This document shows positions 26,094-36,401 of a stretch of DNA of 64,000 nucleotides, in pieces (the stretch's first letter is position 1; the number at the start of each line of letters is the position of its first letter). The notes below the pieces were generated by a model. The model saw only the letters and a list, made by a program, of their open reading frames with translations. It was not told where the DNA came from and did not search any database. The position numbers and the translations under genes are program-made. Source of the stretch: Candidatus Eiseniibacteriota bacterium (GTDB taxonomy: Bacteria; Eisenbacteria; RBG-16-71-46; JABDJR01; JAWXBZ01); the NCBI GenBank assembly GCA_034440375.1, contig JAWXBZ010000235.1, positions 29,563-93,562 on the forward strand, given 5' to 3'.

Positions 26094-26789
26094 TCAATCC
26101 ACCAGTCGCGCGGACTGAATGTAGTCGAGCCTTGGAAAACCGTCGATCAAGTAGGCATTTCCTTCCGTCTGGATGCGTCCCTGGTCGGGGCCAAGCCCTC
26201 TTGGCATGCCCTCACCATACCCCTTGTAGAGTCGATCGACGACCTCCATGCCGATCGCCACCTGCCCGAACGGCGTGAAACCCTGAGAGTCGATCGCGGC
26301 GTTGTCCTTGAGGTTGATGAAGAGCTGGGTCGTTCGGCTGTCGGGCGCTCCTGTTTTGGAGAAGGTGATGTAGCCGCGCTTGTTGCTCTGCCGGTCGGCC
26401 CCCGCGGGCGTGTCATCCGGGATGGTGGCCTCTCGCCAGTGGCGCTGGATGATCGGGTCGCCGTTGATTCCGAACTGGGCCACGAAGTTTTCAATTACAC
26501 GGAAAAAACGGACATCGTCATAGTATCCGTGCTTCACCAGATTGTAAAAGCGATCGGCACCGCTCGGCGACCAGGCCCGGGTTACCAGGACGGTGAATCT
26601 CCCCTGGCTGGTCGTGACATGAACCGCGAAGATTGCCGGAGCCCGGTCGGTCAGCTGCGACGGATCGATCAACAGGCTCCGGTCGACCTTCATCGATTCG
26701 GTGGGGGAGTCCGACTGGCAGCCGAAGCCCGAGTTCATGCCAAGGACAAGCAGTAACAGAAGGGTGATCCCGCGCCGGCCGGGCAACAT
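26094..26789 (-). CDS. Cyclophilin-type PPIase, lipoprotein signal (paralog A)
   Basis: MLPGRRGITLLLLLVLGMNSGFGC signal. Cyclophilin core (RAWSPSGADRFYNLVKHGYYDDVRFFRVIENFVAQFGINGDP...FGQVAIGMEVVDRLYKGYGEG). TGATG overlap with the upstream gene. Confidence 0.85.
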   Translation of the reverse strand: MLPGRRGITLLLLLVLGMNSGFGCQSDSPTESMKVDRSLLIDPSQLTDRAPAIFAVHVTTSQGRFTVLVTRAWSPSGADRFYNLVKHGYYDDVRFFRVIENFVAQFGINGDPIIQRHWREATIPDDTPAGADRQSNKRGYITFSKTGAPDSRTTQLFINLKDNAAIDSQGFTPFGQVAIGMEVVDRLYKGYGEGMPRGLGPDQGRIQTEGNAYLIDGFPRLDYIQSARLVD

Positions 26790-27760
26790 CACCCCGGCGC
26801 GATGGCGTCCAGCGCCCGCTTCATTTCTGCGCGGATGGCAGCGTCCGCACCGGCGGGCCAGGCCGACGGATCGTCGCGGATGAAGGTGGTCAGGTCGTTT
26901 CGGTTGTCGAAACGGGTGACCGGGAGGTGATAGCTCTTGCCCCGCGTGTCGACCCGAACGGTACCCGGCTCGCCGCTCGTCTCGATCAGGTGCGCCATGT
27001 CGTCGGTGCCGTAGTCGCCGAGCATGACCTTGATGGGGACGCCGTGGTGAAGGATGGAGGCGTCGCCGTCGCGGCCGGGTTTGGCGCGCTCCTCGTTCTT
27101 GCGGCGCGATTCCTCGGGCGTGACCCAGATATAGAGAATGGCGGCCCGGCCGAGGATATGGTCCGACAGGCGCCCGAAGCTGTACTGATACCCGTACGGC
27201 GGGGTCAGCGGCATCGAGGAATTCTGGGGGCCGCCGCGCGCAAATTCGATGACGATCGTCCTCCCCTCGAGCGAATCGGGTATGCCGGCCATTTTGTCGT
27301 TCAAGAGTTGTCGCGCCTCGGGTTCCAGCGCGGACTCGAGACGCTTCCGCAACTCCGGGGGCAGCTTGCCGAGTGCCGGTTCCGCCCCGACCTTGATGCG
27401 AGCCGCGTCCAGTCGGTCCAGCAGCCACCCGGCGGCGGATGGCGGGTTGATCGCGGGCCTGGCGTGGAGGTCCTCGTAGTCCTCGTTAATCAGCTCGATC
27501 AACGTACCCCAGTCGAGCGACTCCTGAAACGGCTCCAGCCCCGATGGAAAGAAGATTGGGTCGTGGCCGGCGTGAGTCAGTTCCTCCGAGATGCGCCGCA
27601 TCATGTGGACGTACGGGTAGTCGTCGAGCTGGACCGTTTCGCCCATGTGAAAATCCCGCGACTGGGACACAAAGTCCTGCATCGCCAGCCACCGCCGGAC
27701 CTCGGACTTACCCGAGGCCGGCAGGGCTGTCAGCAGCAATGTGTCGAAATTTCGACTCAC
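26789..27760 (-). CDS. P-loop protein with 6-phosphofructo-2-kinase-like Walker A (ALPASGKS); predicted kinase, function unknown
   Basis: N-terminal LLLTALPASGKSEVRRWL resembles the 6PF2K/AAA_33 P-loop (GLPARGKT). No other motifs recognised. Translationally coupled to the downstream cyclophilin. Confidence 0.35.
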   Translation of the reverse strand: MSRNFDTLLLTALPASGKSEVRRWLAMQDFVSQSRDFHMGETVQLDDYPYVHMMRRISEELTHAGHDPIFFPSGLEPFQESLDWGTLIELINEDYEDLHARPAINPPSAAGWLLDRLDAARIKVGAEPALGKLPPELRKRLESALEPEARQLLNDKMAGIPDSLEGRTIVIEFARGGPQNSSMPLTPPYGYQYSFGRLSDHILGRAAILYIWVTPEESRRKNEERAKPGRDGDASILHHGVPIKVMLGDYGTDDMAHLIETSGEPGTVRVDTRGKSYHLPVTRFDNRNDLTTFIRDDPSAWPAGADAAIRAEMKRALDAIAPG

Positions 27761-27786: not shown

Positions 27787-28503
27787 CTACTTTGAGATGC
27801 GAGCGGTTTTGATGTAGTCCATCTTCGGGAAGTCCTTGTTCAGGTAGGCATTCCCTTCCGCCTGGAGGCGTCCCTGATCGGGGCCCTGGCCGCGCGGTGC
27901 ACCTTCGCCATATCCCTTGTAGAGCTTGTCGACGACTTCCATGCCGCTGGTCACCTGCCCGAACGGCGTGAAACCCTGCGAGTCGAGCATGGAGTTGTCC
28001 TTGAAGTTGATGAAGAGCTGTGTGGAGCGGCTGTCGGGAGCGCCGGTCTTGGCGAAGGTCAGGAAACCACGCTTGTTGCTCTGCTTGTTCGGCGCGGTCG
28101 GGGCGTCATCCTTGATGCTGGCCTCGCGCCAATGTCCCTGGAGGGTCGGGTCGCCGTTGATGCCAAACTGGGCCATGAAGTTCTCGATGACACGGAAAAA
28201 GCGGATATCGTCGTAGAAGCCGTTCTTCACCAGGTTGTAGAAACGGTCGGCGCCGTTGGGCGACCAGGCCCTTGTTACGGAAACGGTGAAATTGCCCTGG
28301 CTGGTGACGAAATCGGCCTTGAAGGTGGCCGGGGCCTGCTCGCTGCACTTCGATGGATCCGTCAGCATGCTCTTGTCGATCTCCTTGGACTTCGAGGTCT
28401 TCGGCTGGGAAGCCGGGGGTGCGGCCGCGTAGGTCACGCAGGCAGCCGTGACGAGCAGGGCGGTTGACAGCGCGAGCCGGGTGGCGAATCGAATACGGGA
28501 CAT
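27787..28503 (-). CDS. Cyclophilin-type PPIase, Sec signal (paralog B, about 75% identical to paralog A)
   Basis: GAGGAG lies 7 nt before ATG 28503. Signal MSRIRFATRLALSTALLVTAACVTYAAA. Core RAWSPNGADRFYNLVKNGFYDDIRFFRVIENFMAQFGINGDP...FGQVTSGMEVVDKLYKGYGEG. Confidence 0.85.
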   Translation of the reverse strand: MSRIRFATRLALSTALLVTAACVTYAAAPPASQPKTSKSKEIDKSMLTDPSKCSEQAPATFKADFVTSQGNFTVSVTRAWSPNGADRFYNLVKNGFYDDIRFFRVIENFMAQFGINGDPTLQGHWREASIKDDAPTAPNKQSNKRGFLTFAKTGAPDSRSTQLFINFKDNSMLDSQGFTPFGQVTSGMEVVDKLYKGYGEGAPRGQGPDQGRLQAEGNAYLNKDFPKMDYIKTARISK

Positions 28504-28652
28504 CGGCATACTCCTCGGCCAAATGGCCGGATAGGGAAATTGTTGGACGAGACGAAGCCGGGGAAGACTACCCCAGCGTGCGGTCCGGTGGTACCCCCTG
28601 GAGCCCCGAAAGGTTTCGGGCAAACGTCGGTTTCGGGAGGCCCCGGGAGCGA

Positions 28653-29234
28653 TCAGCCGGTCCTGGGGGGCATGGCGTCGAGGAGCGCTCGAAAGTCGAC
28701 CCGGCCGCGATTTCTGGCCTGCAGGACGTCCGCCAGCGCCGTCGAGAGGCCGGTCGCGCCGGACTTGTCCGACACGTGGACAGTCGGGGTGGAAGGCGTA
28801 AGAATCACCCCGGCCCCCACACGGGCGCCGGCCTCATCGCGGCACCGGACAAGCCGTCCGGGGGCGCGCCCCTCACAGGCCAGGAAGAGTCCGGCGTCGG
28901 GTTCGTAGCCGTCTGGAACGGTCATGCGCAGCGAAAAGCTCAGGATGGAAGCCGCTTCGAGCCACGCGTGCAGGTCCGGCGTAGCCGGACCGACCCAGGC
29001 CACGGTCAGGTCCTCGAGAGAGTGGCCATCCTGGCGCAACTGGTGAAGTGATCGAAGCACACTCCACGACTCGTCGCTGAGCCGATGGCTGGCAGTTGTC
29101 ACTTCGGCGTCCGACACCGCCGGGTCGAGGTGACGCGGTGCGCCTCCGTCGAGTTCGTCGGCGCGATCGAACAGGCCGAGAATCTCCTCGCGAGAAAAAT
29201 CGGCCAGGCAGAGCTCAAGGCTGGATCGGGTCAT
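28653..29234 (-). pseudogene. argF: Ornithine carbamoyltransferase (ArgF)-derived ORF with a roughly 110-residue internal deletion; lacks the STRTR carbamoyl-phosphate motif and the HCLP motif, so it is a degenerate/pseudo-enzyme
   Basis: N-terminus SLELCLADFSREEILGLFDRADEL matches OTCase (FLSFMDYSPEELIGLIRRGSEL). Segment LTVAWVGPATPDLHAWLEAASILSFSLRMTVPDGYEPDAGLF matches [41 protein letters not shown]. Only 193 aa, where OTCases are about 310 aa. It sits at the end of the arg operon. Confidence 0.6.
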
Positions 29235-29259
29235 GGCGTCACTCTCCTTTCAAGACCGG

Positions 29260-31272
29260 TCAGAGCGAAATGGCGTCGGCATCGACTGAAATCGGCCGTC
29301 TCGCCGGTGGAATCGGAAGCTCCCAGTGCTGTGGGGCGGCGTCGGCCCTGGCCGTGGCTCCGGGAACCAGGTCGAGGACGACGGCTGTTTCATCGCAGGC
29401 ATGGCGACGTGGGCAGTGAATGCAGTCGGTCCACACTTTTCGCGGCAACGACTCGCGCGTCACGATGCGAAAGCCGCAACGCTCGAAAAACGCCACCTCC
29501 CGCGTCAGGGCGATGACACGCTCGAGCCCGATTGGTCGGGCATCCTCCACGACCTCTGCCACCAGCATCCGGCCGAGACCCAGGCCCTGGGCGTCGCTCC
29601 GGATGGCCAGCGAACGGACCTCGCCCAGGTCGTCCCACAGGACACGCAGGGCACAGCAACCGACCACCTCACCGTTCCGTTCGGCCACGTGGAATTCGCG
29701 CACCGACTGGTACAGCTCTCCGACTGGCCTCGGCAAGAGTGTTCCGTCTGCGATGTGTCCCGACATGAGCCGCGAGATGGCCGGGACGTCGGTGGGGAGG
29801 GCCCGGCGGAGCCTGATATTGGCCGCCAGGGCCGGCGGTGATTGCGCGGAAGGCGTGTCGGTTTCAGCCGGCGCCGACGCGGTCATTTGAACAGGCGTCA
29901 CGCCGAGGCGTTCTGCGTGCCGCGCAAGCTGCCTCGCCACCGATTCCGGACCTCCGCCCGGCGTGGCGTTGCGACGAACAACGGCCGCTTCATGATCGAG
30001 CGTGGCCAGCGTGGCGTCGTTGAAGTGGGGCGAGATCGACAACCGCTCCGCGGATGGCAGTTGGGAGGGGGCCACCCGGGCCGCCTCAGCCGCCAGCCAC
30101 AGCCGGCCGACGGCCGAATGCGCCTCCCGAAACGGCAGGCCCCGCCCGACGAGAAGATCGGCCAGTTCGACGGCCAGGAGGTCGTCACCGAGGCCTTCGC
30201 GGATCCGATCAGGCCGAGGCGCCAATGCCTCGATCGCGGCCGGCAGGACGCCGAGCAGTGCTTCGAGCGTGGCCGCTGTGTCGAAAATGGCCTCCTTGTC
30301 TTCCTGCAGATCCTTTTGATAGCTCGACGGCAGTCCCTTCAGCACAATGGCCAGCCGGCTGGCATTGGCGATCAGTCGCCCGGACTTGCCCCGTGCCAGT
30401 TCGAAGAGATCCGGATTGCGCTTCTGCGGCAGGAGGCTCGACCCGGTCGAAAAGCCATCGGGCGGTGCGTACCAGCCAAAGCCGGGCGAGCACCAGAGGA
30501 CCAGGTCCTCGGCCATGCGACTCAGATGAACCGCCAGCGTCGAGGCGGCACCGAGGTAGTCGAGCGCAAAGTCGCGATCTCCCACGGCGTCGACGGAATT
30601 GTCGGCGGCGCGGGTGAAACCGAGCCGGCGGCTCAGGGCACCTCGATCGTAGACCAGCGGTGTGCCCGCCACGGCGCCGGCACCGAGCGGCATCCGGTCG
30701 GCCGACTCGCGGGCGGCGCGGAAACGATCCTCATCGCGGAGGAACGCCTCGACATGCGCCAGCCAGAGGTGTGCCAGGCGGACGGGCTGCGCGGGCTGCA
30801 GGTGGGTCTGGGCCGCCGCATTGAGATTGCCGGCCAGTACGGCCTGGTGAAGCAACGCGCGGGCAAGCTCCTGAAGACCCGCGACGGTATCGTCGCAGAG
30901 GCGGAGAACCCGCAGGCGGACCAGCGTGACGACCTGATCGTTGCGGCTTCTTCCGGTATGGATTTTCAGTCCGGCGTCGCCGGCCCGGCGGACCAGCTCC
31001 GCTTCGATCGCCGAGTGGATGTCCTCCCCGACTAGCGTCTGCCGGCCCGATTCCAGATCGGCCTGGATGTCGAGCACCGCGCGATTCAATGCCGCACACT
31101 CGGAGGAGGAGAGAATTCCCGCCTCGACCAGCGAGTCGGCATAGGCCCGGGCCAGTGCCAGCTCTTCCGGCCAGAGCACCCGGTCGATCGGCAGGGACTC
31201 GTTCAGCGCCTGCGCCCGCGGGTCGAGCCCGCCGAGGCGCCCCGCCCAGAGGCGGTGGTCAGTCGTTGCCAT
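29260..31272 (-). CDS. argH: Argininosuccinate lyase fused to a C-terminal GNAT N-acetyltransferase domain (ArgH(A)-type bifunctional protein)
   Basis: ASL N-terminus MATTDHRLWAGRLGG...ALNESL and fumarate-lyase signature. C-terminal about 170 aa is GNAT (IRLRRALPTDVPAISRLM...RSLAIRSDAQGLGLGRMLV). ATG at 31272. Confidence 0.8.
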   Translation of the reverse strand: MATTDHRLWAGRLGGLDPRAQALNESLPIDRVLWPEELALARAYADSLVEAGILSSSECAALNRAVLDIQADLESGRQTLVGEDIHSAIEAELVRRAGDAGLKIHTGRSRNDQVVTLVRLRVLRLCDDTVAGLQELARALLHQAVLAGNLNAAAQTHLQPAQPVRLAHLWLAHVEAFLRDEDRFRAARESADRMPLGAGAVAGTPLVYDRGALSRRLGFTRAADNSVDAVGDRDFALDYLGAASTLAVHLSRMAEDLVLWCSPGFGWYAPPDGFSTGSSLLPQKRNPDLFELARGKSGRLIANASRLAIVLKGLPSSYQKDLQEDKEAIFDTAATLEALLGVLPAAIEALAPRPDRIREGLGDDLLAVELADLLVGRGLPFREAHSAVGRLWLAAEAARVAPSQLPSAERLSISPHFNDATLATLDHEAAVVRRNATPGGGPESVARQLARHAERLGVTPVQMTASAPAETDTPSAQSPPALAANIRLRRALPTDVPAISRLMSGHIADGTLLPRPVGELYQSVREFHVAERNGEVVGCCALRVLWDDLGEVRSLAIRSDAQGLGLGRMLVAEVVEDARPIGLERVIALTREVAFFERCGFRIVTRESLPRKVWTDCIHCPRRHACDETAVVLDLVPGATARADAAPQHWELPIPPARRPISVDADAISL

Positions 31273-32572
31273 GAAGGACGACCTCCGCCGTTTCGGTGTG
31301 GATACTGGACATGGATTCATCGGGTGTGTTCCCGGGGATCGATTTCATCAAGGCCGGGGCGACATCCCCGTGCCGCACCTGGCGCGACGTGGCCACCATC
31401 GGCAACCCGAAGAGGCGGATGAAACCCTCGGCATCCTTTGGACGATAGCCCGCCATGTCGAAGGAGGCGAGCGCATTGTCGTAGAGCGAATTAGGACTGG
31501 TGCGGGCCACGGCACGGACCTGCCCCTGGTGAAACTCGAGCGTGACCGTGCCCGCCGCGACCGACATCGCTTCGTCAAAGAATGCCGACAGTGAGCGGCG
31601 GAGCGGCGAAAACCAGAGTCCGTTATAAATGAGGTCGGCCAGCGTGAGGGCCATCGTTGCTCGCGTCCGATGGAGATCGTGTGGAAGCACGAGACGGGCC
31701 AGATCTTCGAGCGCCTCGTGGAGCGCCGTTCCAGCCGGCGTCTCGTACACCCCACGGGACTTCATGCCGACCAGCCGACTCTCGACGAGATCGGCCCGGC
31801 CGACGCCGTGACGTCCGGCGAGAAGGTTGAGTTGCTCGACCAGCGGGACGGGATCGAGCCGTGCGCCGTCGAGAGCCACCGGAATGCCCGCCTCGAACGT
31901 GACATCGATCGTGTCGGGAAGTGATGGACGTTGGGCCGTAGCCGCCGTCAACCGGTAGAGCGATTCGGGTGCCGGGTTGGCCGGATCCTCGAGCAGGCCC
32001 CCCTCGTGGCTCATGTGCCACAGGTTGGCATCACGCGAGTAGAGATCGGCGGTTGTCTGCTTGACCGGGATATCGTGCCGCGCCGCGTAGGCGAGCGCTT
32101 CCTCACGCGATGAAATATCCCATTCGCGCCAGGGGGCGATGATCGGAAGCTCGGGCGCAAGGGCCATGGCGGTCAGCTCGAAGCGGACCTGATCGTTCCC
32201 CTTGCCGGTGCACCCGTGGGCCAGGGCATCGCAACCGGTGGCACGGGCCGCGGCGACCTGCCGCTCGGCGATCAGGGGACGCGCGAGCGCGGTGCCAAGA
32301 AGGTAGCGCCCCTCGTACAACGCGCCCGCCTTGAGGGCAGGGAACACGTAGTCGGTCAGGAATGGCCGGCGCAGGTCCTCGAGAATCACCTGGTCGGCAC
32401 CGATGCGGCGAGCCCGATCATGGAGGTCGGAGAGTTCATCCCCCTGGCCCAGGTCGGCGCAGAAGGCCACGACCTGGCAGCCGTACTTTTCCTTGAGCCA
32501 GGGGACGATGATGCTGGTGTCGAGTCCGCCCGAATAGGCCAGGGCCACACGGCGGTAGGTGTGTGCAGTCAT
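31259..32572 (-). CDS. argG: Argininosuccinate synthase
   Basis: VALAYSGGLDTSIIVPWLKE PP-loop. Full-length ArgG homology. Confidence 0.9.
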   Translation of the reverse strand: MTAHTYRRVALAYSGGLDTSIIVPWLKEKYGCQVVAFCADLGQGDELSDLHDRARRIGADQVILEDLRRPFLTDYVFPALKAGALYEGRYLLGTALARPLIAERQVAAARATGCDALAHGCTGKGNDQVRFELTAMALAPELPIIAPWREWDISSREEALAYAARHDIPVKQTTADLYSRDANLWHMSHEGGLLEDPANPAPESLYRLTAATAQRPSLPDTIDVTFEAGIPVALDGARLDPVPLVEQLNLLAGRHGVGRADLVESRLVGMKSRGVYETPAGTALHEALEDLARLVLPHDLHRTRATMALTLADLIYNGLWFSPLRRSLSAFFDEAMSVAAGTVTLEFHQGQVRAVARTSPNSLYDNALASFDMAGYRPKDAEGFIRLFGLPMVATSRQVRHGDVAPALMKSIPGNTPDESMSSIHTETAEVVLHGND

Positions 32573-34599
32573 GAGCGACCTCCCAAACTTTCCGAGACCG
32601 GCGACAGCCGGCCGAGCGCCCTGCCCAACCGGGCAAGAGCATCGTCAATATCAGCAACAGCAACATTCAGCGGCGGAAGCACCCGAACGCTCCAGCTTCC
32701 CGCCTTGCACAACAACAGCCCCTCGTCACGACAGGCGCCAACCAGCGCGGCCGGATCGAATCCCGCCGATTCGTCGATCTCGATAGCCCGAAGGAGGCCC
32801 AATCCGCGCGAGGCGGTCAGCGCGTCAAAACTTGCCACCAGTCGCTCGAGGCCGGCCGCGAGATACACGCCGCGCTCGGCGATGTTGTTCAGAAATCCGG
32901 GTCGGCTGATCGTGTCGAGCAGGTAGCCGGCCGCGGCGGCCGCGACGGGATTGCCGCCGAACGTCGTTCCGTGCTGGCCGGGTTCCAGGAGTCCCGCCAG
33001 TTCGTTGCGAATCAGGACGGCGCCGATCGGAATGCCGCCGCCCAGCCCCTTGGCCAGAATCGTGATGTCCGCCTGAACGCCGGCCTGTTCAGCCGCCAGG
33101 AATGTGCCGGAACGGCCGGCACCGCATTGGACTTCGTCGAAAAGCAGCAGCGCGCGATTCTCCGTCGTGCGACGACGAAGGTGATGCAGGAACGACGAGT
33201 CCGCCACGCGCGCTCCCGCCTCGCCCTGAACCGGTTCGATCAGCACGGCGTCGAGGGGTTTTCCTTCGGCCTCGATTTCGGAAAGAAGCGCATCGAACGC
33301 CGCGGGGTCATTGAACGGCGCGAACCGGACTCCCGGGACCAGGGGCTCGAATGGCTCGCGGTAGGCCGGCGTGGCCGTGGCCGACAGGGCGAAGGCCGTC
33401 CGCCCGTGGAAGGAGCCATCAAAGGCGACAATGACCCCGCTGTTCCGGCCGGCGGTCCGCGCGTGAAGTCGTGCGAACTTGAGGGCGGCCTCGTTTGCTT
33501 CCGTGCCCGAGTTGCACAGAAAGACCCGGTCATAGCCGGTGAGGGCTACGAGGCGTTCGGCCAGTTCGATGGCCGGCCGATTGCCGAACAGGTTCGACAC
33601 GTGAACCAGTCGATCCATCTGGCGGCAGACCGCCACCCGGAGGCCACGGTCGGCGTGACCGAGTGTGTTCACCGCGATGCCACTGACGAAATCGAGGTAC
33701 TCCCGTCCGTCCGCGTCGACGACCCGGCATCCCGAACCGTGAGACAGTTCGAGTCGGGGCAGGGGATAAACGGCGGCAAACAGATCCGACTCCGTCACCG
33801 TCGTGGCATCGATTCCGGCGCCCGTTGCCAGGAGCCGGGTCAGATCGCCAATCGATGTCCAGGTGGAGATGATGGCCTGACGAACACCCGCCTCGACCGA
33901 TTGACATGCCGCTCCGAGCTTCGGCTTCATGCCACCGGTCACCTCGATGTGTGACAGGAGCCGCTGGGCCTGATCCAGGTTGATCGTTCCCACCGGTCTG
34001 GATTCGATGGTGACTGCCGGGACATCCGACAAAAAGAGGATCGTGTCGGCGCCGAGGGCCACAGCGACGGCCGCCGCGGCCTCGTCGGCGTTGATGTTCC
34101 AGACACCTCCAGCCCGATCCATCCCGATGGTCGAGAGGACCGGCACCCGGCCCGTGGCCATGAGATCTTCCAGCAGGCCGGTGCTGACGTTCGATACGTG
34201 TCCGACATGACCCAGGCGGGCGGCATGCGGGTGGGGCTCGGCTTCCAGCGTGCGGGCGTCGATTCCGGAAAGCCCCACGGCCTCGACACCCCCCGCGAGC
34301 AGGCCCGCCACCAGGCGACTGTTGACGAGGCCCGTCAGGACCGCCGTAGCCACATCGAGAACAGCCTCATCCGTCACACGAAGACCATCCTCAAAGCGGC
34401 TATCCAGCTTGAGGTTATCGCACCAGCTATTGACGTCCTTGCCCCCGCCGTGGACCAGCACAATGGGACGACTCAGTGACGCCAGATCGGCGGCGAAATC
34501 GGCCATGCCGGTCGAATCCTCAAGCGCCCGCCCGCCGAGCTTGATCACCAGCGGTGTGGTGGATGACGCCGTCGGGGCGTCGCCAAGAATGCGCGTCAC
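32569..34599 (-). CDS. argB/argD: Fused acetylglutamate kinase (ArgB, N-terminal about 270 aa) - acetylornithine aminotransferase (ArgD, C-terminal about 400 aa) in one continuous frame
   Basis: ArgB motifs (LVIKLGGRAL...VLVHGGG...ADEAAAAVAVALGADTILFLSDVPAV). These run directly into the ArgD N-terminus (DLFAAVYPLPRLELSHGSGCRVVDADGREYLDFVSGIAVNTLGH), with the ArgD PLP-lysine region further on. Start is a GTG at 34599 overlapping the argC TGA (GTGA). Confidence 0.75.
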   Translation of the reverse strand: MTRILGDAPTASSTTPLVIKLGGRALEDSTGMADFAADLASLSRPIVLVHGGGKDVNSWCDNLKLDSRFEDGLRVTDEAVLDVATAVLTGLVNSRLVAGLLAGGVEAVGLSGIDARTLEAEPHPHAARLGHVGHVSNVSTGLLEDLMATGRVPVLSTIGMDRAGGVWNINADEAAAAVAVALGADTILFLSDVPAVTIESRPVGTINLDQAQRLLSHIEVTGGMKPKLGAACQSVEAGVRQAIISTWTSIGDLTRLLATGAGIDATTVTESDLFAAVYPLPRLELSHGSGCRVVDADGREYLDFVSGIAVNTLGHADRGLRVAVCRQMDRLVHVSNLFGNRPAIELAERLVALTGYDRVFLCNSGTEANEAALKFARLHARTAGRNSGVIVAFDGSFHGRTAFALSATATPAYREPFEPLVPGVRFAPFNDPAAFDALLSEIEAEGKPLDAVLIEPVQGEAGARVADSSFLHHLRRRTTENRALLLFDEVQCGAGRSGTFLAAEQAGVQADITILAKGLGGGIPIGAVLIRNELAGLLEPGQHGTTFGGNPVAAAAAGYLLDTISRPGFLNNIAERGVYLAAGLERLVASFDALTASRGLGLLRAIEIDESAGFDPAALVGACRDEGLLLCKAGSWSVRVLPPLNVAVADIDDALARLGRALGRLSPVSESLGGRS

Positions 34600-35633
34600 C
34601 ACGCGCGGGCTTCCAGGTCGAGGCCGGTGGCTTCGGGCCAGCCGGTCATGAGGTTCAAGTTCTGAATGGCCTGACCCGCGGCCCCCTTCACCAGGTTGTC
34701 GATGGCGGCCGTGGCCAGAAGAGTCCTTCCGCAATGAACGGTCGTGACGGCGACCTGGACCTGGTTGGTGCCATGGACGGCCCGGGTGTCCGGCCACTCG
34801 CCGGCCGGAAGGACCGTGACAAAGGATTCGTCGGCATACCGCTCGATATAACGCTCCCGGGCCAGGGTCTCATGGATTGGCTGCGACAGCGGCGTTGACA
34901 CCGTTGCCAGGATCCCTCGCGACATCGGCACGAGCTGCGGGGCGAACGCCACGGACGGCGTGGTGTTGGCGCCATAGCTCGCGAAGTTTCGTGTCATCTC
35001 CGACACATGTGAGTGGATCTCGCCGACCTTGTAAAAGGAGGCGCTTCCGGCGAGTTCCGCGAAGGAGTTGCTCAACACGGCGCGGCGACCGGCCCCGGTG
35101 ACGCCGGAAAGGGCTGACACCATGACCGCTCCGGTCACCCATCCCGCCTCCACCGCCGGCAGGAGAGCCAGCGTCGCGGCGGTTGGGTAACAGCCGGGAT
35201 TGGCCACGCGGGGCGTGAGGTGTAACCGGGCCCGATTTTTTTCCGTCAGCCCGTAGACGAAGCCCATGGATTCGTCCCTCCAGTCGGCCGACAGGTCGAG
35301 AATTCTTGTCGGGGCCTCAATCCAGGCCGGATTTCCCGCGACCAGTCCGGCCAGCGCTCCATGGGGGAGCGCGCTGACCAGCGTGTCGCAGGTGCCGCGA
35401 CCCAGCAGATCGGCAATCGCTTCCAACGAGATGATCGCTGGAAACTGGCTGGCCTCGCCCCGACCGGTGTCGAAACCGGGGGCCAGACAGCTTGCCGGCT
35501 GCCCGGCCCATTCGCGCGAGGCAAGAGCCGTGATGGTGATCCCGGGATGTCGGCGGGCCAGCCGAAGAAATTCCAGGCCGGCATATCCACTGGCCCCAAG
35601 CAGGGCCACTCGCGCCATGATCGGCGCCGTCAA
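34596..35633 (-). CDS. argC: N-acetyl-gamma-glutamyl-phosphate reductase
   Basis: MARVALLGASGYAGLEFLRLARRHPGI N-terminal NAD-binding region. Catalytic-Cys region (ANPGCYPTAATLAL). Confidence 0.9.
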   Translation of the reverse strand: MTAPIMARVALLGASGYAGLEFLRLARRHPGITITALASREWAGQPASCLAPGFDTGRGEASQFPAIISLEAIADLLGRGTCDTLVSALPHGALAGLVAGNPAWIEAPTRILDLSADWRDESMGFVYGLTEKNRARLHLTPRVANPGCYPTAATLALLPAVEAGWVTGAVMVSALSGVTGAGRRAVLSNSFAELAGSASFYKVGEIHSHVSEMTRNFASYGANTTPSVAFAPQLVPMSRGILATVSTPLSQPIHETLARERYIERYADESFVTVLPAGEWPDTRAVHGTNQVQVAVTTVHCGRTLLATAAIDNLVKGAAGQAIQNLNLMTGWPEATGLDLEARAW

Positions 35634-36130
35634 CGGGCAAGGCTCGATCCGGCGTCGGCCAGGGATTCGAGTTGACGACGGAAGGCCCGCGCGCGGGCCG
35701 CACTGGGTGTGACGACGAGTATGGTGTCGTCCCCGGCCACCGAACCAACCACATCGGTGCTGCAGAGGAGGTCGATCGCGCGGGCGACGCCGTTGGCGTG
35801 ACCAGGTGGGGTGCGGACGATGAGCAGTTGTCCCGCCAGCCGGATTTCGTTGATGAACGACTTGAGATCAAGTTCCTGCCGGTGGCGGTCGACGACCTCG
35901 GTGGCCGGTGACGGGAGTGAGTAGACTGCGCGCCCGTCACGACCCGGCAACTTGCCCACGCCTAAGCTGGCCAGGTCGCGGGACAGCGTGGCCTGGGTGA
36001 CCTGTATGCCGTGACGGCCAAGCGCGGACACGAGTTCCTCCTGGCTGCCGTGCCGTCCATCGGCGATCAGGCGGGCCAGCGGGGCTCGACGTCGTGCCGG
36101 GCCGCGGGGGGCGTGTGCATTAATATTCAT
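35630..36130 (-). CDS. argR: Arginine repressor ArgR
   Basis: Winged-helix region SQEELVSALGRHGIQVTQATLSRDLASLGV. C-terminal oligomerisation domain. ATG at 36130 (MNINAH...). First gene of the arg operon. Confidence 0.85.
   Translation of the reverse strand: MNINAHAPRGPARRRAPLARLIADGRHGSQEELVSALGRHGIQVTQATLSRDLASLGVGKLPGRDGRAVYSLPSPATEVVDRHRQELDLKSFINEIRLAGQLLIVRTPPGHANGVARAIDLLCSTDVVGSVAGDDTILVVTPSAARARAFRRQLESLADAGSSLAR

Positions 36131-36324: not shown

Positions 36325-36401
<77 letters not shown>

Follow-up and report, generated by a model that had tools for sequence, protein, structure and literature searches.

A short, motif-less relative of ornithine carbamoyltransferase at the end of an Eisenbacteria arginine operon: a predicted pseudo-enzyme under purifying selection

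The arginine biosynthesis operon described here ends with a gene for a short protein that resembles ornithine carbamoyltransferase (OTCase) and has none of its catalytic motifs, which raises the question of whether this gene is a decaying relic, part of an enzyme, or a protein with a role of its own. The gene lies at 28653..29234 on the reverse strand of the window (the whole 64,000-nucleotide stretch of DNA that was analyzed). It starts with ATG and encodes 193 aa, and the product, which we call mini-OTCase, is identical to MDZ4806355.1 at NCBI (locus tag SGI90_15970 of a Candidatus Eisenbacteria MAG), where it is annotated as 'hypothetical protein'. A first-pass annotation had described the ORF as an OTCase remnant and offered three explanations: an OTCase encoded elsewhere, a decaying pathway, or a repurposed pseudo-enzyme.

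The codon-position GC of the ORF (0.73/0.53/0.77) is as usual for coding frames in the window. An in-frame stop lies only 5 codons upstream of the ATG, so the protein cannot be longer, and the argH(A) stop, 25 nt before the ATG, leaves no space for a longer one. A Shine-Dalgarno sequence (AAAGGAGAG; 29242..29250, reverse strand) precedes the ATG with a spacing of 7 nt; it is kept as GAAAGGAG/A in all seven loci of the short family (see below) for which DNA is available, each with AAAGGAG 7 nt 5' of the ATG. The product is acidic (pI ~5, ~21 kDa), and its N-terminus, inspected by eye, shows no resemblance to a signal peptide. The surroundings of the ORF have no Rfam match, and neither a terminator nor a promoter consensus was found there; an RNA or regulatory explanation of the region was dropped for this reason.

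The genes upstream are on the same (reverse) strand. Directly upstream is argH(A) (29260..31272), a fusion of argininosuccinate lyase with a GNAT domain (short N-acetylglutamate synthase-type), followed by argG (31259..32572, argininosuccinate synthase), an argB-argD fusion (32569..34602, acetylglutamate kinase and acetylornithine aminotransferase), argC (34596..35633), and argR (35630..36130, arginine repressor), the first gene of the arg cluster. Pfam domains on the identical contig (L001) uphold the order argR-argC-argB~D-argG-argH(A)-ORF, and the earlier description of an uninterrupted ORF as the last gene of this series was thus accurate. We note a tRNA gene (68 bits) at 36325-36398 on the opposite (forward) strand, just upstream of argR. 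Pfam annotation of 20 other ORFs in the window revealed no arginine-related function, and tblastn of five full-length OTCases against the 64 kb window found no second OTCase or transcarbamylase-like gene.

OTCase is the sole family that mini-OTCase matches in Pfam, NCBIfam and PDB sequence searches, and all of these matches are partial. In Pfam, residues 75-124 align to positions 2-52 of the 157 positions of PF00185 with 16.7 bits (cut-off 29.4), and PF02729 gives no match even at E = 10. The NCBIfam OTCase model NF001986 covers residues 64-146 (model positions 142-223 of 307, E = 8.9e-8), and solved OTCases match the same stretch only (4f2g by its residues 152-197, human OTCase by its residues 139-230). 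The NCBIfam OTCase models score 22-32 bits for mini-OTCase with cut-offs near 300, e.g. 22.2 bits for the equivalog TIGR00658 (cut-off 280.85). The likeness is therefore limited to the N-terminal helix and part of the ornithine domain, as the first-pass annotation had it, and the profile searches that it proposed for mapping the deletion yielded the sub-threshold PF00185 match and no PF02729 match. The alternatives that it allowed for, a complete member of a different family or motifs overlooked through misalignment, were not found. We also considered missing OTCase parts hidden in other frames; tblastn of the full-length OTCases matched the ORF core alone, which rules this out.

Motifs were mapped by aligning mini-OTCase to its closest full-length OTCases, for example that of cluster P0010. 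Residues 1-33 (29136..29234, reverse strand, as are all segments that follow) contain an MTRSS N-terminus that is invariant in the short family and then helix 15-29, homologous to OTCase helix H1 (residue 21 corresponds to P0010 residue 24). The next ~100 residues of the carbamoyl-phosphate domain (P0010 ~33-133, including the STRTR motif, here SLRTR, at 57-61) are replaced by a ~20-aa linker (residues 34-53, 29076..29135), which is variable in length and sequence, predicted to be disordered, and evolves almost neutrally. The OTCase-homologous core (residues 54-146, 28797..29075) corresponds to P0010 134-226 and is 46-53% identical to Eisenbacteria OTCases; it comprises the inter-domain helix and, from the ornithine domain, four beta-alpha units. 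Within this retained core HPxQ (HPCQ at P0010 135-138) reads ESWS, and GDGNN has become GPATPD. A second linker (residues 147-159, 28758..28796), variable in sequence, marks the site of the second deletion, in which the DxxxSMG loop and the HCLP segment were lost (P0010 SMG 231-233, HCLP 266-269). The protein ends with two helices (residues 160-187, 28674..28757) that bear a derived, near-invariant motif, R-x-R-G-R-V-D-F-(R/K)-A-L. STRTR, DGNN (replaced by PATPD) and HCLP had already been reported missing or mutated, and the alignment adds HPxQ and SMG to this list. Since no defining OTCase motif is left and the scores are far below every family cut-off, mini-OTCase is not an OTCase in function, and it would be expected from its sequence to have no transcarbamylase activity.

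What remains is predicted to fold. AlphaFold2 run with a nine-member family alignment gave one good model out of five, and with a 37-sequence alignment all five models reached a pLDDT of 86.7-88.5 (pTM 0.82), with low confidence confined to the two linkers. The predicted elements are helix 15-29 (OTCase H1), the disordered linker, helix 54-68 (the inter-domain helix), four beta-alpha units spanning 77-145, the second linker, and helices 160-175 and 181-187. A Foldseek search of the PDB with the model returned OTCases and putrescine transcarbamylases at the top 44 ranks, and the model core (90-97 residues) superposes on solved transcarbamylases at 1.5-1.9 A. The models thus allow a confident prediction that mini-OTCase is a compact, foldable product.

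Mini-OTCase is not a singleton. A search of 5.8 billion proteins identified eight further clusters (P0002-P0009; 188-212 aa) sharing 56-73% identity over the full length. A more distant member, P0035 (205 aa, ~41% identity), emerged when 1.84 billion representatives were searched exhaustively with a profile; its architecture is the same, GAAS stands where DGNN would be, and the C-terminus reads RPRVDFRAL. All nine have the same two deletions as mini-OTCase. With two intermediate clusters described below, the 10 short ones bring the family to 12 clusters at 90% identity. All come from uncultured organisms, and the frame is intact in 12 out of 12; a scan of metagenomes for short-form DNA provided one more locus. 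Short-form genes are found on independent JGI, ENA, Logan and NCBI contigs, which rules out an assembly artefact. In every readable locus the short form is directly 3' of argH(A), and the longer contigs carry the full order argR-argC-argB~D-argG-argH(A)-short-cyclophilin.

The slot is that of argF. Eisenbacteria with the nearest full-length OTCases have the order argR-argC-argB-argD-argG-argH(A)-argF. When one genome per GTDB species was scanned, 71 loci were returned, 57 of them close OTCase loci (68-100% identical) mostly labelled Eisenbacteria; STRTR, HPxQ, DGNN, SMG and HCLP are intact in all 57, and argH(A) is directly upstream wherever upstream sequence is present. The orthologous loci of relatives, which the first-pass annotation had suggested checking for a full-length gene, thus have a full-length, motif-intact argF at this very position. 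Mini-OTCase is the positional orthologue of argF and descends from it in the same genomic place. The short form is absent from the 185,579 GTDB species-representative genomes, and a full-length OTCase query retrieves more than 7,900 protein clusters at E < 1e-60, from which it follows that canonical OTCase is the overwhelming norm and that the short form marks a small uncultured clade. Among the 120 listed of these more than 7,900 clusters, none is attributable to the SGI90 MAG.

The two intermediate clusters (P0022 and P0183; 243 aa each, 79% identical to each other) indicate how the short form may have arisen. P0022 is directly after argH(A). Both are without the carbamoyl-phosphate domain and read GRAT where OTCases have DGNN; the SMG and HCLP segments (TDRWESEE; MHDSP, VMHDSPARAGRE) and the C-terminal helix are still present in degenerate form. 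Their C-terminal end reads ERPRVDFSRLGL, and its RPRVDF tail is shared by the short family as R-x-R-G-R-V-D-F-x-A-L, so that the motif is derived and is not the ENRLHxQKA helix of canonical OTCases. In a neighbor-joining tree of the 93-residue core, bootstrap support is 87% for the short family with P0035, 94% for these with the intermediates, and 77% for all degenerate forms, where long-branch attraction could inflate the grouping of P0036 and P0037; the group of degenerate forms is nested inside Eisenbacteria OTCases in this 93-column tree. The identity of the neighboring ArgH(A) GNAT domain to that of the window is 85-92% in short loci, 81% in the P0035 locus, 70% in the intermediate locus, 71% in the closest canonical loci and 55-70% in other canonical loci, an order that is concordant with the core tree and independent of it. 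The sequences P0036 (206 aa) and P0037 (258 aa) are OTCase-like, with HPCQ kept and other motifs mutated (SMG to RIG or TGT, HCLP to HGFS or HGRP, GDGNN to GGASS); they may represent the earliest stage of degeneration, or may be fragments.

Taken in order, these forms suggest that argF at the operon end was reduced in steps in one Candidatus Eisenbacteria lineage. Catalytic motifs would perhaps have been lost first, then the whole carbamoyl-phosphate domain, giving the 243-aa form, and then the half of the ornithine domain that holds SMG and HCLP. The end product consists of helix H1, the inter-domain helix with a four-stranded alpha/beta half-domain, and a new helical tail with RxRVDFxxL. Series of this kind, in which an essential biosynthetic enzyme is whittled in situ to a smaller non-catalytic protein and the intermediate is preserved in related genomes, are rare. 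Calling the gene a remnant was correct in that it encodes a cut-down OTCase; the term undersells it, as the mini-protein is stable and derived and its evolutionary intermediate is documented.

We calculated pairwise dN/dS from the DNA of seven short-family members. Values for the OTCase-derived core (residues 58-146) are 0.08-0.29, those for the N- and C-terminal helices 0.09-0.57, and those for the two linkers mostly 0.5-1.4 (range 0.25-2.3); for the structured 157 codons, four methods give 0.04-0.25. In the same genome pairs, cyclophilin has 0.13-0.23 and argH(A) 0.11-0.23, and canonical argF, over the same 89 codons in 14 genomes, has a median of 0.27 (0.05-0.51). The core of mini-OTCase is therefore as constrained as the active enzyme over the same codons, and near-neutral evolution is limited to the two linkers that replace the deleted segments. 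Short-family genes are 567-639 nt long, always multiples of three, and their length differences are in frame. Invariant residues are found in the loops after the beta-strands (G82-P-A-T85, P107-D-G-x-E-P-D113 and R130-x-R-D-E134) and in the basic C-terminal motif.

These results bear on the idea that the gene is a neutral argF relic, still open since stop codons are rare in a GC-rich genome, in a lineage that is losing the arginine pathway. The loss of every catalytic motif, the two large internal deletions and the many spurious long ORFs in the GC-rich window fit such decay, as does the faster evolution of the protein relative to its neighbors (between the same genomes, identity is 58-73% for the mini-protein and 77-86% for ArgH(A) and cyclophilin). 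However, 10 clusters that have diverged to as little as ~41% identity share the architecture, the frame survives many indels, the core dN/dS equals that of canonical argF and the neighboring enzymes with near-neutrality in the linkers only, the ribosome-binding site is conserved, the fold is confidently predicted, and argH(A) is under purifying selection too. Given purifying selection, in-frame lengths and a conserved ribosome-binding site, we reject the reading of a decaying pseudogene or pathway as highly improbable; the decaying pathway of the first-pass annotation does not agree with a conserved family under selection as strong as on real enzymes and a constrained argH(A). The hallmarks of a pseudogene are missing (the frame is intact, the Shine-Dalgarno sequence is kept, omega is 0.04-0.29 in the structured parts, and the gene is conserved across clusters). 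Those of a pseudo-enzyme are present: an enzyme homologue, catalytic residues gone, and purifying selection. The repurposed pseudo-enzyme of the first-pass annotation gains support from the same combination of lost motifs and a conserved, selected family. A functional protein could also have nothing to do with arginine, having been recruited, e.g. with the downstream block of a cyclophilin, a 323-aa P-loop-like protein and another cyclophilin, so that its place in the operon is historical. These three genes are beside the short form in every long-enough locus, including that of P0035, and the block is absent downstream of canonical argF. Against this, only 25 nt lie between the argH(A) stop and the mini-OTCase gene, and in P0035 and P0022 the two genes overlap by 4 nt, a spacing that points to co-transcription with the arg genes or to translational coupling; a gap of ~150 nt with a separately conserved block lies between mini-OTCase and the cyclophilin gene, and no cyclophilin is found downstream of the intermediate P0022. 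We consider a role outside arginine metabolism unlikely.

Two further readings keep mini-OTCase closer to the carbamoylation step, and we hold both to be quite improbable. It could still be part of an enzyme, i.e. a subunit working with a separate carbamoyl-phosphate-binding protein or a full-length transcarbamylase, in a split or hetero-oligomeric OTCase or as its modulator. In favor of this, the half-domain inherited from OTCase is constrained as strongly as its counterpart in the active enzyme, the helices that connect the two OTCase domains (H1 and H5) are still there, and argG and argH need citrulline, so that some OTCase activity should exist. Yet the retained portion has none of DGNN, DxxxSMG and HCLP and so cannot supply the missing half of an active site. 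In OTCases, as is established, it is largely the carbamoyl-phosphate domain, the deleted one here, that forms the trimer interface and the active site, and no partner gene is found in the window. A split enzyme was judged unlikely because the ornithine-binding motifs are gone too. The other reading is that the clade has no conventional OTCase and makes citrulline by a non-orthologous route, with mini-OTCase and its new RxRVDFxxL tail as a required non-catalytic subunit or regulator of that route or of the fused ArgB-D or ArgH(A). If this were true, mini-OTCase would be the first transcarbamylase-derived pseudo-enzyme, and the steps of its domain erosion would be visible in living lineages. For the source of citrulline we prefer another answer: as argG and argH(A) are intact and constrained, a citrulline source is needed, and we infer that ornithine is carbamoylated by a transcarbamylase encoded elsewhere in the genome, outside the window.

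The reading we favor, and regard as fairly likely, is that mini-OTCase is an expressed, folded and non-catalytic pseudo-enzyme, derived from the argF of the operon itself, with an accessory role in arginine metabolism. Its role would be tied to arginine synthesis because the gene is tightly linked to argH(A), and operon position points most plausibly to an accessory or regulatory part in the pathway. The conservation pattern suggests that it probably acts by binding a protein partner or a small ligand. Alpha/beta domains usually bind ligands or partners through the loops that follow their beta-strands, and the conserved loops at the C-terminal edge of the beta-sheet, together with the derived C-terminal motif, are candidate binding sites.

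Compared with the anabolic OTCase of Eisenbacteria (ArgF/ArgI; EC 2.1.3.3; PF02729 and PF00185; TIGR00658), with which it shares ancestry and slot, mini-OTCase has 193 aa instead of about 330. Of the OTCase fold it keeps helix H1, the inter-domain helix and four ornithine-domain beta-alpha units; it has no carbamoyl-phosphate domain, STRTR, HPxQ, DGNN, DxxxSMG or HCLP, and gains the RxRVDFxxL tail. In arg operons the argF slot is likewise occupied by N-acetylornithine or N-succinylornithine transcarbamylases (argF'), and these too are often misannotated, but they are full-length, two-domain, active enzymes with altered substrate-binding motifs, whereas mini-OTCase has lost the carbamoyl-phosphate domain. 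PyrC' of Pseudomonas aspartate transcarbamoylase is an inactive dihydroorotase-like subunit. It and mini-OTCase are alike in that catalytic residues are gone from an enzyme homologue and selection is maintained within the same pathway context; however, PyrC'-type proteins have the full fold and a known partner, while ~40% of the fold of mini-OTCase has been excised in two steps. Mini-OTCase fits the general category of pseudo-enzymes, with PyrC' as its probable closest analogue in spirit. Full-text literature searches found no description of an OTCase-derived pseudo-enzyme and none of arginine synthesis in Eisenbacteria, and we know of no transcarbamylase-derived pseudo-enzyme.

For annotation, the gene is a trap, as labelling it either 'hypothetical' or argF leads to wrong calls of arginine-pathway completeness in one direction or the other. 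Mini-OTCase also raises the question of the source of OTCase activity in the clade, and, as a compact, natural, minimal ornithine half-domain, it offers a handle on fold stability and new binding functions.

Several other observations were made in the same loci. Only in the mini-OTCase clade do argB and argD form one protein of 677-689 aa (L001, L005 and JGI 3300056388), and they are separate genes in canonical-argF relatives (L007 4547-6635, L008 4199-6548); the fusion is a second clade-specific remodelling of the same operon. Wherever a close Eisenbacteria-type locus (L007-L065) includes upstream sequence, the argH-GNAT fusion precedes the OTCase gene. A 2006 survey found the argH(A) fusion confined to marine Alteromonas- and Vibrio-like gammaproteobacteria (PMC1382215).

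Downstream of mini-OTCase, between its stop and the cyclophilin start, there is a conserved intergenic block of ~45 nt (28554-28598, reverse-strand reading) with the consensus GGGGGTACCACCxGxCxG...GCTGGGGTAxTCT..CCCGGCTTC. It is found in 7 out of 7 short-family loci, and the P0035 locus lacks it. It matches no sigma-70 promoter, no terminator and no Rfam family, and may serve the cyclophilin gene as a promoter or leader. The 323-aa protein (26789-27760, reverse strand) has a Walker-A-like LPASGKSE and no Pfam match, and its gene is flanked by two cyclophilin genes (27787-28503 and ~26094-26789). The cyclophilin-323-aa-cyclophilin arrangement is kept downstream of mini-OTCase in L002, L005, L109, L112 and JGI 3300056388, and the P0035 locus encodes a version of the 323-aa protein that is 76% identical.

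Two observations concern canonical argF. Two loci from long-read assemblies, L073 and L074 (9638-10536 of the complete Candidatus Eisenbacteria chromosome OY970342.1), have an OTCase gene that runs across two frames, with STRTR in an 86-aa ORF and SMG/HCLP in another, reflecting either a sequencing frameshift or a genuine argF pseudogene. The MAG SJ457 has two different canonical argH(A)-argF ends (L015 and L020; JADLGX010000064 and JADLGX010000270), so that either the bin is mixed or the arg cluster is duplicated.
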